Part shown: piece by piece, positions 6,747-12,910 of the stretch
Numbering within the stretch: position 1 is the stretch's first letter
Layout: the number at the start of each line of letters is the position of its first letter
Origin: Candidatus Eiseniibacteriota bacterium
GTDB taxonomy: Bacteria > Orphanbacterota > Orphanbacteria > Orphanbacterales > Orphanbacteraceae
Length of the DNA stretch: 64,000 nt
Direction: 5' to 3'
Assembly (NCBI GenBank): GCA_016930695.1
Contig: JAFGGD010000026.1
Span: forward strand, 114,904-178,903
Translations under genes and position numbers: made by a program
The notes under the pieces: model-generated
The model's database searches: none
What the model was told of the DNA's origin: nothing
Seen by the model: only the letters and a program-made list of their open reading frames with translations

Positions 6747-8663
6747 TCAGGCGCGGACCGGCGTCGTCTCGGGGAGCCATTTGCACAGCACTTCCTCGAG
6801 CGCCTTCGGCGTGACCGGCTTGGCGACGTAGTCGTCCATCCCCGCATCGAGACACAGGTCCCGGTCTCCCTGCATGGCGTTGGCGGTCATGGCGACGATC
6901 GGGATCGGCCGCCCGCCTCCCGTCCGCCCCGCCTCGCGGATCACCCGAGTCGCCTCGAAGCCGTCCATCTCCGGCATCTGGCAATCCATCAGAACCAAGT
7001 CGTAGGGAATCGTCTCCAACGCGCGCACCGCTTCCGCGCCGTTCGCGACCGCATCGGCCCGGCATCCCATTTTTTTCAAGAGAAGAAGCGCCACCTTCTG
7101 ATTGACCGGATTGTCCTCGGCGACCAGAACGCGCGTGCCGGGGGCGGGGCGGATCCTCTCGGGCGCGCCGCCTCCCGTGTCTTCCCCCGACCCGCCATCT
7201 TCTCGGGACCGGAATGCGGCGTCCAACGCCTCGTGGAGAGTCGATCGCTTGAGCGGCTTGGTCAGGCATCCGTCGGCGCCGATCGTTTCGATCGACTCAC
7301 CGCGCCGCCGTCTCCCGATTGTCGAGAGGAGCAGGATCGGCGCGACGCGATCCGGGTCCGCACGGCGCAGTGCCGCCACCGCCTGCGCTTCCGAGAGGTC
7401 GGGGAGGGTCGCGTCGAGGAGAACGAGTTCGTAAGGATCGCCATGACGCGACGCTTCTGCGAAGAGCGCCGCCCCCTCCTCGCCGCCGGCCGCCTCGTCG
7501 ACGCGGTGACCCGCGGCGCGTATCTGCGCGGCGACGTCGGCGCGGCACTCCTCGTTGTCTTCGATGAGAAGGATCCGCCGTCCGGACACCGGCGCCCGCG
7601 CCGGGGAAGCGGCGCCCTCCCGCCCCCTCTCCAGGTGAATGGTGAACCAGAAGGTGGAACCCTTGCCGGGCGCGCTCTCCACGCCGACCTTCCCGCCCAT
7701 CAGTTCGGCGAGGCGCTTGGATATGGCGAGACCGAGACCGGTACCGCCGTACCGCCGCGTGGTCGAGGCGTCGGTTTGGCTGAAGGAGCGGAAGAGCTTC
7801 CCGATCTTCTCCTCGGGTATCCCGATCCCCGTGTCGCGAATTTGAAAGAGGAGCGTCGCCCGTCTCCGATCGCCCTCTTCCGGTCGGACTCGGAGAACGA
7901 CTTCGCCCCGATCGGTGAACTTAATCGCGTTGCCGATGAGGTTGATCAGGATCTGACGCAGCCTACCCGGATCGCCGCGAAGGTGCTTCGGCGTTTCGGG
8001 ATCGATCCGCGCCACGAGCTCGAGACCCTTCTCCTCGGCGCGCATCGCCAGAAGGTCGGTCGCCTCCTCCACCGTTTCGATCAGGTTGAAGTCGAGCGTC
8101 TCCAAAACGAGCCGCCCCGCCTCGACCTTCGAAAAGTCCAGGATGTCGTTGATGATCGTGAGGAGGGCTTCGGCGCTGTTGCGGACCGTTTCGGCGTACT
8201 CCCGCTGCTCCGTCGTCAGCTCGGTCTCCAGAAGAAGACCGGCCATGCCGATCACGCCGTTCATGGGCGTGCGGATCTCGTGGCTCATGTTGGCGAGGAA
8301 CTCGCTTTTGGCGCGGGTCGCGGCCTCCGCCGCCTCCCGGGCGGCGGCGATGTCCTCCATCATGTTCACCGAGGCGATCTGCATCTCCTGGAGGGTCCGG
8401 CGTTCCCGCTGCAGCTCCCGTTCGCGCTCCTCCGCTTCGGCGAGCTTGTCGGTCAGCTGCCGGCGGAGTTCCTTCTCTTCCGACGCCTTCCCCTCCAACC
8501 GGTGGAGAATCTCGTCCGCCTTGGCGAACTGCTCCGCCACCAGCTCGGCGGTGATGTCCGAAGCGCGCCGCGCGACACGGAGTTCGTCGCGCAGCATCTC
8601 CCGATCCCGCAATAGGCGATCGAGCGAGTCGTCCGCTGGCACGTTGTGCTCTCGATCCGTCAT
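6747..8663 (-). CDS. Hybrid histidine kinase: coiled-coil, HisKA, HATPase, then two receiver domains; no sensor domain
   Basis: H-box [15 protein letters not shown]-boxes DTGIGI and GGTGLGL. Two REC domains, with the C-terminal one reading [11 protein letters not shown]...[13 protein letters not shown]. No TM or PAS domain. Start overlaps the upstream protease stop. Confidence 0.85.
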
Positions 8664-9115
8664 GCTTCCTCGTTCGATGCGCGCATGGCGTCGATTCCGT
8701 GGGCGGCGAGCAGCGGGGCGATCCGCGCCGCTTCCCGTATCGCGTCGTCGCGGAACGGCACGGGCACGCCGACCACGAGTATCTCGGGCGCCGGGTGGTC
8801 GAGAAGGTAGGGGAGGCAGCGGATCAGGTAGCCGATCCCCGCGGAGTGGCCGAAGGTCTCCGCGCCGGTTCGCGCCGCCTCCGCCCCGGTGGTCACCACC
8901 AGCCCTTCCCCCGGGTCGAATCCGATCGCCGCGTCGACGAATACGACGCGGTCCGCGCCCTCGACCCTCGGGAAGAGGTCCAGACCGGCCAGTCCGCCGT
9001 CCACCGCCTCCACCCCGGCGGGAAGCCCGTTCCGCGCGATGAGGTCGTACACGCGAGGCCCGGCGGAATCTTCCGGATGGTATCGGTTCCCGACGCAGAC
9101 CACTCGGTTCACCAT
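8660..9115 (-). CDS. [NiFe] hydrogenase maturation endopeptidase (HyaD/HybD/HoxW family)
   Basis: 151 aa. Family-typical N-terminus [18 protein letters not shown] and GVPVP motif. Immediately follows the large subunit. Confidence 0.8.
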
Positions 9116-9119
9116 CCCG

Positions 9120-10679: not shown

Positions 10680-11618
10680 TTATACCTCGTTTTCCCGGCC
10701 CAGGAGCCGCTCCGGCGCGGCCGCCGCCGCCATTCCCTTGTAAGCCATGTAGTGGGCTCGGTCGACGCCCTCGGGCAGCTCGATCGGCAGGTTTTCGATG
10801 TTCGGCGTCTCGAAGAAGGGCGTGGCCTGCGGAAATCCCGGCTTGGTGCAACCGAAGCAGGGAACGCCGGCGCGGGTCTTGGAGCTGCGGCGATTCCAGA
10901 GCAGTTTGTTGCATGGCCCGTGGGCGAGCGGCCCGTGGCATCCCATGTGGAAGAAGAGGCAGCCCCTTTCGCCGAACTCCTTCTCCTCCACGCGGTACTC
11001 GTGATACTCGTTTCGCGTGCAGCCCTGGTGGACCAGCATGCCGTACCACTCCGTAGGGGTGCCGAGGCGGTCCAGGTGCAAGGGGACACCGCCCACCAGC
11101 GCCGTGAGGGTCCCGACCACCACGGACGGATGGCATGGACAGCCGGGGAGGTTGATCACCGGCATGCCGCTCCCGGAGGTCCAGGAGTCGCCCAGGAATC
11201 CCCCCTTTTGATCGCGGGTGAACTGAACGCCGCAAGCCTCCACCTCGCAGCTCGCCGGAATGCCGCCGAAGCTGGCGCACGTCCCGACGGCGATCACGTG
11301 TTCCGCCCGCGCGGCGAGCGCGGCGAGAAGGTCCTTCTTCGGGCGGCCGCTATGGGTGGCGTACATCCCCGTACCGGTGGGTCCGCGGATGACCGAGCCC
11401 TCCACGCATAGAATATGAAGGGGAAGGTCCCCCGCCGTGATCGCGCCGACCGTTCTCTCACGCTCCTTCGCATCGCACGCCGTCATGGAAGGGTGCCAGA
11501 GAACGCGCAGATCCAGTTTGTCCAATACCTGAACAAATCCCGGGGAATCGGCGCAAAGAAGGGACATGGTGTCGCCGCCGCAGGCGCCGCACTGCAACCA
11601 GAAAAGATTCAAGGACAT
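10680..11618 (-). CDS. [NiFe] hydrogenase small subunit, no Tat signal peptide (cytoplasmic, group-2-like)
   Basis: Begins directly MSLNLFWLQCGACGGD, the proximal-cluster motif. GTCASFGG and PGCPCHP present. Medial and distal cluster ligands HMGCHGP...C...CFGC present. No RRxFLK leader and no C-terminal TM anchor. Confidence 0.9.
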   Translation of the reverse strand: MSLNLFWLQCGACGGDTMSLLCADSPGFVQVLDKLDLRVLWHPSMTACDAKERERTVGAITAGDLPLHILCVEGSVIRGPTGTGMYATHSGRPKKDLLAALAARAEHVIAVGTCASFGGIPASCEVEACGVQFTRDQKGGFLGDSWTSGSGMPVINLPGCPCHPSVVVGTLTALVGGVPLHLDRLGTPTEWYGMLVHQGCTRNEYHEYRVEEKEFGERGCLFFHMGCHGPLAHGPCNKLLWNRRSSKTRAGVPCFGCTKPGFPQATPFFETPNIENLPIELPEGVDRAHYMAYKGMAAAAAPERLLGRENEV

Positions 11619-11629
11619 GACCGCCCCCC

Positions 11630-12910
11630 TCAGTCTCCTTTATTCATGGCCGGCAAGACCCCGCCGATCAATTCGGCGACCCTCTCCGGCGCTTTGTACT
11701 TGGCCGGCCGGTCGAGTTCGTCGAGCAATCCGTTCACTTCCGCCTTGAGCTGCACCATCCGCGTTTCCCGCTCCACCGTCTGACCCACGAGAATCTCCAG
11801 GCGGTGCTTCGCCTCGGAAATCTCCTTCATGTGCCGCTTCAGTTCTTCCTCGCTACTCTTCCTCTCCGTGATGTCCACGAAGGTCTCCAGGAGGAGCTCC
11901 TCATCGTCGAGCAGAAGCGGAAGAACGGACTTGAGAACCGGAATGGAACCTCCCGACGCGTCCAGCACGACCCCCTCGCGGTTGTGGATCGATTCCTCTC
12001 CACGCAGGACGGGGCACTCCTTCATCGGACTGGAACAAAAGGTGTCCCGGCAGCTTCGGCCGATCAGTTCCCCCTCGGTCCTCTCCAGGAGGGCCAGGGC
12101 GGCTTCGTTGACGCTGCGGATAGTCCCTCGCCGGTCCACGAGGACGACCGCGAACGGGAGCCCCTCCAAGGTGGCCCGCATCGTCTCGAGGGTCCGGCGC
12201 ACCGATTTCTCCGCCTCCCGGCGGCGCGTTTCCGTGGCGATGGCGTTGCGGATCACCGTGAGCAGGAGGATCACGACCACGCCGAGGATGGCCAGGAGCA
12301 CCCAGGCGAGCCGACGGGTCATCGCCGTGATTTCCCGCCGTTCGTCCTCGACGTAAAGACCGGTGCCGACGATCCATCCCCAGGCTTCGCAACCCTTCAC
12401 GTAGGATATTTTCGGCGCCACTCGGTCGGGATCGTCCTTCCACTGCCACATGTAATCGACGAAACCCTCTCCCCGTTCGCGCACGATGCGGACCATTTCG
12501 ACGACGAGGAGTTTTCCGTTCGGGTCGGCGTAATCACTCATGTCAGTCCCGTCCATGTCGGTGCGGTAGGGATGCATGAGCATGGTGGGATGCATGTCGT
12601 TGATCCAGAAATAGTCCTTCTTCTCCGGGCCGTAGCGGAGATGCCGGACATGATCCATCGCCGCTTTCTGCGCCGCTTCCCGCGTCAGCGTCCCTTCCTG
12701 TTCCAGGCGGACGTAGTAGTCGATCACGCTCCAGGCGATCGCGGTCTGTTCGCGCACCATCTCCATTTTCTTCGATCGGAGGCTTTCCTCGAACTGCGGC
12801 AGGATGAAGAGGAAGGCCGCGACCGTGAAGAGCGCGAGCGAGGCGAATACCGGCAGGAAGATACGGAGATGCAGGCCGTTCCAGATGGATGTCCGGTCGT
12901 CGTCCGGCAT
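11630..12910 (-). CDS. Membrane sensor protein: TM, Cache-like periplasmic domain, TM, PAS, coiled coil; no output domain
   Basis: Start chosen at MPDDD (GGAGAG SD). The upstream portion of the ORF is Gly/Arg-rich junk. Cache-like motif YFWINDMHPTMLMHP. Two hydrophobic segments. PAS-like region LEGLPFAVVLVDRRGTIRSVNEAALALL. C-terminal coiled coil. No kinase or GGDEF domain. Confidence 0.7.
   Translation of the reverse strand: MPDDDRTSIWNGLHLRIFLPVFASLALFTVAAFLFILPQFEESLRSKKMEMVREQTAIAWSVIDYYVRLEQEGTLTREAAQKAAMDHVRHLRYGPEKKDYFWINDMHPTMLMHPYRTDMDGTDMSDYADPNGKLLVVEMVRIVRERGEGFVDYMWQWKDDPDRVAPKISYVKGCEAWGWIVGTGLYVEDERREITAMTRRLAWVLLAILGVVVILLLTVIRNAIATETRRREAEKSVRRTLETMRATLEGLPFAVVLVDRRGTIRSVNEAALALLERTEGELIGRSCRDTFCSSPMKECPVLRGEESIHNREGVVLDASGGSIPVLKSVLPLLLDDEELLLETFVDITERKSSEEELKRHMKEISEAKHRLEILVGQTVERETRMVQLKAEVNGLLDELDRPAKYKAPERVAELIGGVLPAMNKGD

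Follow-up and report, generated by a model that had tools for sequence, protein, structure and literature searches.

A group 2 [NiFe] hydrogenase encoded between an input-only sensor and a sensorless hybrid kinase: a probable H2-sensing switch in Candidatus Eiseniibacteriota

Can a [NiFe] hydrogenase that is encoded between the two halves of a split two-component system be a receptor for H2, and by which path would its signal reach the kinase? The question is raised by five minus-strand genes in a 64,000-nucleotide stretch of DNA from Candidatus Eiseniibacteriota bacterium (assembly GCA_016930695.1, contig JAFGGD010000026.1, positions 114,904 to 178,903 of the forward strand; hereafter, the window). 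The genes fill positions 6747-12910 and encode, in the order of reading, an input-only membrane sensor, the small (HydS) and large (HydL) subunits of the hydrogenase, a hydrogenase maturation endopeptidase and a hybrid histidine kinase (Table 1). Since its sensorless-kinase layout recurs across many phyla, the cluster is probably an H2-sensing switch, akin to yet distinct from the known kinds. An earlier note, made from the letters of the window by a model, had described these genes as a modular signalling complex of an unprecedented type. The gene linkage, the group 2 character of the enzyme and the split into halves stood up to the analysis reported here, H2 sensing is proposed conditionally below, and the claim that the arrangement is without precedent did not stand: the layout corresponds to that of the putative sensors of hydrogenase group 2c, with a kinase as the linked transducer, and follows the same logic as the sensors of group 2b.

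Gene order and placement of the hydrogenase

The five genes, all with high third-position G+C in the open reading frame (ORF) analysis (66% G+C in the window as a whole), are packed closely. The protease and kinase genes overlap by 4 base pairs (bp; ATGA), the kinase start lying over the protease stop, and the remaining junctions are gaps of 4, 6 and 11 bp, the widest of which separates the sensor gene from hydS. This packing had been described in the earlier note, together with domain calls for all five proteins; the ORF coordinates and junctions confirm the former, and Pfam and NCBIfam profiles agree with every one of the latter. The ORF of the sensor is extendable to 13084; the form of 426 amino acids (aa) used here is identical to the public gene call P0124, and GGGAGAG precedes its ATG at 12910. 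The HydL product matches a public Candidatus Eisenbacteria entry with 100% identity.

The order HydS-HydL-(protease)-kinase was found in each of the 11 genome loci compared (Planctomycetota, Acidobacteriota, Desulfobulbaceae and Thermodesulfobacteriota), in five of five further members of the family, including Phycisphaerae, Kiritimatiellaeota, Chloroflexi and Elusimicrobiota, and in every metagenome locus with downstream sequence. In the window's HydL family, called F1 here, the gene directly behind HydL or the protease encodes a kinase at each of 23 non-redundant loci, and the endopeptidase gene keeps its place at most related loci. Because the same order recurs in these 23 loci of other phyla, it is not due to chance, and the linkage to signalling genes is not unique to one genome. 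The upstream sensor gene is missing in about half of the F1 loci (L003-L011, L016-L018). No cultured F1 members were present among the clusters checked, all of which are metagenome-assembled genomes or metagenomes.

The hydrogenase subunits were recognized by the profiles NiFeSe_Hases (HydL) and Oxidored_q6 and NiFe_hyd_SSU_C (HydS; Pfam/NCBIfam). In a search of the PDB, the best solved relative of both subunits is Huc of M. smegmatis, a group 2a enzyme (E = 5e-131 for HydL and 2e-79 for HydS), with group 1 enzymes far behind (about 1e-69 and 1e-29, respectively) and group 3 weaker again for HydL (1e-22 or weaker). HydS begins with MSLNLFWLQC10GAC13, so that nine residues precede the proximal CxxC, and an in-frame TAA lies eight codons upstream of its ATG. 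A twin-arginine translocation (Tat) leader read from an upstream start is therefore impossible, in agreement with the earlier reading of HydS as leaderless. All Fe-S ligand positions of HydS, belonging to three ligand sets, align with those of reference small subunits. On sequence grounds, the hydrogenase is a cytoplasmic group 2 [NiFe] enzyme, as the earlier note had proposed. As a separate observation, the proximal-cluster motif GCPCH of HydS (C160-P-C162, region 11133-11141) contains an extra Cys two residues past the ligand, which is present in several F1 members (L001, L010, L014) and not in L006 and L018. The cleavable 13-aa extension of HydL and the dedicated endopeptidase, both pointed out before, are evident from the sequence and from matches of the protease to TIGR00072 (57 bits; cut-off 47.45) and to Pfam HycI (23.3; cut-off 23). 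The conservation of the active-site ligands and of the maturation protease implies that the Ni-Fe site is functional.

The placement within group 2 was refined with a neighbor-joining tree of 70 HydL sequences (502 columns, 100 bootstraps), in which one group 1 sequence served as the outgroup. F1 is monophyletic (bootstrap 99), and so is F2 (bootstrap 100), the GGDEF-EAL-linked clade of the methanotroph/Ideonella type; the two are sisters (bootstrap 80), and groups 2a and 2b each form a monophyletic group (bootstrap 100) apart from F1. Mean HydL identities are 45% between F1 and F2, 43% between F1 and 2a and 37% between F1 and 2b. The same gradient is seen for the HydL of the window itself in comparison with plasmid records: 47% identity to Ideonella dechloratans (gene order HydS-HydL-protease-PAS-GGDEF-EAL), 44% to the Huc type (2a) and 37% to the HupUV type (2b). 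Relatives of the Ideonella HydL come from methanotrophs, Sedimenticola, Gallionellaceae and Leptothrix, and the layout HydS-HydL (with extension)-protease-GGDEF-EAL was seen in Ideonella, Methylotuvimicrobium and Methylocystis. Within the tree, linkage to GGDEF-EAL is confined to F2, and the downstream gene of F1 is invariably a kinase.

Group 2c of HydDB is the "diguanylate cyclase-linked" putative H2 sensor, and its arrangement of subunits, protease and transducer is the one found here (PMC5037454), so the statement that nothing with this arrangement is known was not borne out. The L2 motif of F1, SFD[AP]CLVC[TA]VH in about 100 of 120 members (SFDACQVCSVH in the window), agrees with the 2c consensus SFDxCLVCTVH (PMC4853749); the motif discriminates weakly, since 2b has SFDPCMVCTVH. 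As a rule, F1 HydL proteins end in an extension of 12-17 residues. At the two bottleneck positions of the gas channel, where bulkier residues mark the proven H2 sensors (PMC11023054), group 1 has V/L, 2b and F2 have I/F, F1 has I/M and 2a has I/L. As judged from these comparisons, clade F1 appears to be the kinase-linked sister of the HydDB 2c enzymes.

The likeness of F1 to 2c extends to a cytoplasmic HydS of 312-313 aa without a Tat leader, a HydL of about 510 aa with a short extension, a HycI-type protease and a signal-transduction gene directly 3', in addition to the shared L2 consensus and the sister position of F1 and F2 in the tree. The two differ in their output, which is PAS-PAS-GGDEF-EAL in 2c and a hybrid histidine kinase with the N-terminal motif M1 (see below) in the window, in the gas channel (I/F versus I/M), in their mutual identity of only 45%, in the third, tail-bearing sensor gene that is often present in F1, unlike in 2c, and in their taxa (Planctomycetota, Desulfobacterota, Eisenbacteria and others for F1; methanotrophs and Betaproteobacteria for 2c). 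The 2b systems, HoxBC-HoxJ of Cupriavidus necator and HupUV-HupT of Rhodobacter capsulatus, resemble the window in having a cytoplasmic group 2 enzyme beside a histidine kinase, in the proposed logic of a hydrogenase as the input of a two-component system and in the Ile at the first gas-channel position. In the 2b examples compared (Acidovorax, Fuscovulum and Paraburkholderia plasmids), however, HydL ends at the L2 His (...CTVH) and has neither extension nor protease, whereas the window has both; L1 is CGICSVSQ, with Gln for His, and the channel I/F, against CGICGTAH and I/M in the window; and the C-terminus of the small subunit reaches about 14 aa further. In 2b, the kinase starts with a PAS domain (PAS-HisKA-HATPase), lacks receivers and has a sigma-54 regulator as partner, whereas the kinase of the window combines a coiled coil with two REC domains. 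Together with the separate 2b clade (bootstrap 100) and its 37% identity to F1, the extension, the protease, the L1 His and the kinase type uphold the earlier view that this is not a classical 2b sensor. Huc of M. smegmatis (PDB 7UTD/8DQV) shares with the window the cytoplasmic location, the extension and protease and a similar C-terminal extension of HydS, but it belongs to a separate clade (bootstrap 100), and at 2a loci the neighbours are DUF1641, NifU, NHL and TPR genes, with no kinase adjoining. The locus is thus without the defining features of 2b and without the defining gene linkage of 2c.

The sensorless kinase and the input-only sensor

In the first 117 residues of the kinase, no input domain was recognized with Pfam or NCBIfam, and the same searches found no Hpt domain; residues 10-145 are predicted by AlphaFold2 as one helix that runs into DHp helix 1 (mean predicted local distance difference test score, pLDDT, 89.8). 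All F1 kinases open with M1, a motif of about 65 aa, which is followed by HisKA directly or by PAS or GAF first, and they contain one or two REC domains, with Hpt present or not. A hidden Markov model (HMM) of M1 matches the kinase encoded directly behind HydL or the protease at 23 of 23 non-redundant F1 loci, those kinases that contain PAS or GAF included, and none of about 6,800 other ORF fragments of all fetched loci. Pfam and NCBIfam gave only chance coiled-coil matches to M1, and a word-indexed search with the kinase N-terminus yielded three matches only and was uninformative. A homology of M1 with the N-termini of the GGDEF-EAL partners of F2, which look similar by eye, was dropped since the M1 HMM gave no match to them at E<10.

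The protein encoded upstream of the hydrogenase is organized as a first transmembrane (TM) segment, a periplasmic sCache_2 domain (E = 1.9e-36), a second TM segment, a PAS domain (PAS_9, 8e-11) and a conserved C-terminal tail; Pfam and NCBIfam detected no output domain in it. The tail, of about 70 residues, has the consensus DITERK..EEEL....SEAKRRLEVLVSNTT.RE.RMV.LK.EVN.LL..LGR.PKY.AP. In several relatives, the upstream proteins have other input modules (MASE3-PAS, dCache-HAMP-PAS-PAS, GAF-PAS, TM-PAS), and all end in the same tail. A phmmer search of 1.84 billion representatives returned 433 representative proteins with the tail at E<=1e-3, in which, among the 150 matches listed, it nearly always stands at the extreme C-terminus. 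A metagenome scan with a tail alignment yielded 80 loci, and in 79 of these the tail ends 0-27 aa before the stop codon. Pfam found a PAS domain in 75 of 89 tail proteins, and HAMP, Cache, GAF or MASE3 in others; among the matched families listed (25 of 26), none is HisKA, HATPase_c, GGDEF or MCP-signal. Pfam and NCBIfam assigned the tail itself to no family, with chance coiled-coil matches only, and a single-sequence AlphaFold2 model of PAS plus tail renders it helical at low confidence (pLDDT 48). That the tail is an ordinary linker from PAS to HisKA, left over from a kinase that was split recently, was ruled out by its nearly invariable C-terminal position among the 150 matches listed, and is also opposed by the fused forms, which number only two and have a PocR domain between the tail and the kinase motif M2 in both.

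Two observations concern the PAS domains of these proteins. The motif C-x4-C-x6-CP of the window's sensor (consensus CHxxICPAExGxCP) recurs in 21 of 63 proteins with the tail, e.g. P0125, P0128, P0129 and P0134, and a second Cys-rich PAS subtype has C-x10-C-x2-C (e.g. L001, P0130). Such Cys-rich PAS domains suggest metal, Fe-S or redox sensing. Another observation concerns P0162 (182 aa), a public gene call that runs from a sensor tail into the start of HydS (...STLYWLQCGGCGGDTMSLL...); it is probably a frameshift or a miscall, and incidentally confirms the adjacency of tail and HydS in another sample.

The tail gene is accompanied by M2, the "AALNLMED" segment that immediately precedes HisKA in the kinase and is the proposed docking site of the tail. 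In F1, M2 is found without exception in the kinases of the 11 non-redundant loci that have a tail gene, and in none of the 10-12 loci that do not. The motif, as the pattern [A/S]A(L/V)N(L/M)(M/L)ED, was also surveyed in 60 non-redundant tail loci without hydrogenase, where it occurs 20 times on the same strand downstream of the tail gene, i.e. in 20 of the 38 loci with at least 1 kilobase (kb) of downstream sequence; there were no occurrences upstream of the tail genes in 180 kb and none on the opposite strand. Tail and M2 can also be joined in cis, since two proteins, P0217 (1077 aa) and P0246 (881 aa; compare L055, 2938-3885), contain an internal tail followed by PocR and then by M2, and the gene after the tail gene opens with PocR-like sequence in L061, L062 and L064. 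The earlier description of the sensor and the kinase as complementary halves gains independent support from the same-strand, tail-first pairs of tail and M2 in unrelated loci, as well as from the co-variation of the two within the hydrogenase family.

Proposed signal path and its rivals

The gene anatomy, clade placement, conserved synteny and motif associations are established; from them we infer that H2 is sensed, which components make contact and which way the signal runs, and we lean, with slightly better than even confidence, towards a three-piece H2-responsive phosphorelay. HydSL, matured by its own endopeptidase, would serve as an H2 or redox receptor and not as an energy-conserving enzyme. 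The first ~110 residues of the kinase would make up a single long helix that runs on into the DHp, and M1, to judge from its strict co-occurrence with the hydrogenase, would couple the kinase to it, the role that the PAS domain of HoxJ/HupT has for the group 2b sensors. The upstream sensor would supply a further input: its sCache_2 would detect a periplasmic ligand, and its Cys-rich PAS might respond to redox state or metal. It would pass this signal non-covalently from the tail helix to M2 of the kinase helix, as the gene-order coupling and the co-variation suggest. The kinase would integrate both inputs, and phosphate would flow through its two REC domains to an Hpt protein or response regulator encoded elsewhere; in relatives, stand-alone REC and REC-SpoIIE (PP2C) proteins may be the partners.

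Several points weigh against such a phosphorelay. Its support is sequence-based throughout, and the literature searched contained no characterised member of F1 or of group 2c. F1 keeps the L1 His, the C-terminal extension and the protease, unlike the proven 2b sensors, and is nearly as near to the catalytic Huc enzymes (43%) as to F2 (45%), in a tree that was built by a crude distance method and without 2d and 2e references. The co-variation of tail and M2 in F1 may represent few independent events, since the tail-positive loci may form one clade, and M2 is not exclusive to tail partners, since M2-like motifs are also found in large CheB/CheR-type kinases (L082). Finally, the 64-kb window encodes neither hyp genes nor another hydrogenase, and neither an Hpt nor a response regulator.

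The main rival is a catalytic enzyme co-located with regulators: as with Huc (2a), the hydrogenase would do metabolic work in the cytoplasm, in H2 uptake or in redox balancing, the two-component genes on either side would control it or share its regulation, and the kinase would sense something else through partner proteins. The retention of all catalytic features (L1 His, L2, the full Fe-S chain, the cleavable extension and the own protease) fits this explanation, as do the 43% identity to 2a, nearly that to F2, and the two fructose-1,6-bisphosphatase (FBPase) genes directly upstream at L005, L006 and L008 (at L007, from ORF lengths only). However, no F1 locus was found to encode an anchoring or an electron-acceptor subunit (cytochrome b, diaphorase or Huc-type accessory genes), in contrast to 2a loci with their conserved accessory set of DUF1641, NifU, NHL and TPR genes; DUF1641, NifU and NHL genes are absent from the window locus. 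A kinase without an input domain of its own, a motif M1 that is found only beside F1 hydrogenases, the overlap of the kinase start with the protease stop and the coupling of the same enzyme type to c-di-GMP enzymes in the sister clade F2 also speak against mere co-location, and the five-gene cluster contains no DNA-binding regulator. On balance, a catalytic role appears unlikely.

Less probable again, in our estimate, is that the hydrogenase and the kinase form the signalling unit as a pair, the sCache-PAS protein being independent or serving another partner. In favour of this reading, the upstream sensor is absent from about half of the F1 loci; the tail family stands mostly away from hydrogenases (65 of the 80 metagenome loci, the remaining 15 being followed by HydS-HydL), and M2-like motifs are widespread in large kinases. 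Yet the sensor gene is on the same strand and 11 bp from hydS, the tail gene and the M2 of F1 kinases are always present or absent together, and the tail-then-M2 order is one-directional in unrelated loci. The tails themselves point the same way: the loci followed by HydS include the 11 best tail matches (L019-L029) and L033, all with at least 51% tail identity, although L031, L034 and L035, with 51-53% tail identity, have no hydrogenase following.

That the enzyme responds to cellular redox state, O2 or CO instead of H2, with the active site or the Fe-S chain as a redox switch for the kinase, a possibility already contained in the earlier note and consistent with a Cys-rich, potentially redox-active partner PAS and with a window that has no H2-metabolising enzyme to regulate, is the least probable of the alternatives, given that conserved active-site ligands and maturation protease imply a functional Ni-Fe site and that two relatives adjoin uptake-hydrogenase or hyp genes.

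The three-piece phosphorelay might itself be one instance of a general design, for which the literature searched gave no description, in which kinases are assembled from parts, the tail helix of input-only sensors docking in trans on the N-terminal M2 stalk of sensorless kinases and, in this lineage, the hydrogenase plugging into the same stalk through the hydrogenase-specific M1. This generalization is offered tentatively and falls short of even confidence.

Neighbourhood and wider meaning

Table 1. Features of the five-gene cluster in the window and of related loci
Feature	Position	Strand	Remark
Input-only membrane sensor gene	11630-12910	-	426 aa
Hydrophobic segments flanking sCache_2	12791-12874 and 12251-12310	-	
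sCache_2, extracytoplasmic ligand-binding domain	12317-12778	-	Pfam
Cytoplasmic PAS of the sensor	11858-12181	-	Pfam PAS, PAS_4, PAS_9
Cys motif C-x4-C-x6-CP in the sensor PAS	12011-12052	-	
C-terminal tail of the sensor, ~70 aa	11669-11875	-	conserved in relatives
HydS gene, [NiFe] hydrogenase small subunit	10680-11618	-	312 aa
Group-2-type C-terminal extension of HydS	10683-10817	-	alignment to reference small subunits
HydL gene, [NiFe] hydrogenase large subunit	9120-10673	-	517 aa
L1 motif of HydL, RVCGICGTAH	10449-10478	-	His kept
L2 motif of HydL, DACQVCSVH	9162-9188	-	
Cleavable 13-aa C-terminal extension of HydL, AFRGGRSFPRRKV	9123-9161	-	follows SFDACQVCSVH
Hydrogenase maturation endopeptidase gene	8660-9115	-	151 aa
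Hybrid histidine kinase gene	6747-8663	-	638 aa
M1, ~65-aa hydrogenase-associated N-terminal motif of the kinase	8427-8621	-	
M2, "AALNLMED" segment just before HisKA	8328-8393	-	
HisKA of the kinase	8115-8312	-	Pfam
HATPase_c of the kinase	7629-7976	-	Pfam
REC1 of the kinase	~7224-7580	-	Response_reg
REC2 of the kinase	6789-7130	-	Response_reg
Two FBPase genes in relatives	L005 4164-6996; L006 365-3257; L008 831-3647; L007 4065-7005		L007 from ORF lengths only
Second hydrogenase or hyp neighbours in relatives	L009 613-3047, 12707-14986; L011 12806-15216; L017 4999-5676		
Candidate output genes in relatives	L003 12492-13688; L010 11365-13922; L011 10593-11024; L016 10859-13647; L018 8713-9592		

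The genes around the F1 loci of relatives are varied. In Desulfobulbaceae/delta-proteobacterial relatives, genes for FBPase_2 and a GlpX-type FBPase replace the sensor gene upstream of HydS, and NIR_SIR-like and AP_endonuc_2 genes recur 3' of the kinase in the FBPase-bearing relatives; these neighbours may hint at what the system controls. An uptake-type hydrogenase operon adjoins the F1 locus in two relatives (L009, L011), the second hydrogenase being group-1-like (28% identity) and equipped with a Tat-type leader in L011, and hypF or hypA/hypC adjoin some F1 loci, which fits a role in the regulation of H2 metabolism. Downstream of F1 kinases, stand-alone receivers, REC-SpoIIE (PP2C) proteins, a HisKA-REC-cNMP-SpoIIE protein and a cNMP-binding protein are encoded, which are candidate outputs and resemble partner-switching systems.

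In the window itself, a 445-bp intergenic stretch (12911-13355) separates the sensor gene from a divergent TPR gene (13356-14846). A scan for sigma-70-like promoters, which does not cover the promoter type of this phylum, gave no match, this stretch included; Rfam matched no family in the whole window, 12911-13355 included, and terminator-like matches in the window were no more numerous than in shuffles. Farther away, the plus-strand gene at 19788-24971 encodes a 1727-aa protein with a Ser/Thr protein kinase, AAA_16, TPR, GAF, a sigma-54 activator and HTH_8, an unusual fusion of a kinase to an enhancer-binding protein without a receiver domain. At 48142-55223, also on the plus strand, a Ppx/GppA phosphatase gene lies between genes for two lamin-tail-domain (LTD) proteins, with genes for PhoU-like (DUF47) and PHO4 phosphate-transporter proteins after them; the run resembles a cluster concerned with phosphate, in which the LTD proteins are the unusual part.

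To our knowledge, group 2b is the only kind of [NiFe] H2 sensor that has been studied experimentally, and group 2c is an untried prediction. Greening et al. 2016 and Sondergaard et al. 2016 (PMC5037454) are the references given for HydDB group 2c. The full-text literature search returned no description of a kinase-linked 2c-like enzyme or of M1, the Greening et al. 2016/HydDB pages, which may mention kinase neighbours, lying outside it. With the F1 loci, the putative use of hydrogenases as sensors reaches into Planctomycetota, Desulfobacterota, Chloroflexi, Acidobacteriota, Eisenbacteria and further, mostly uncultured phyla, and the loci provide testable sequence handles, namely M1 on the kinase and the tail with M2 for the accessory sensor. 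If the general design of kinases assembled from parts is true, one kinase would compute over H2 and an extracellular ligand, and the tail family, with at least 433 representative clusters, would belong to the same scheme. If the phosphorelay is true, microbial communities of soils and anoxic habitats would widely use H2 as a regulatory signal, and the tail and M2 would be a reusable interface by which sensing and kinase functions are split over two polypeptides.

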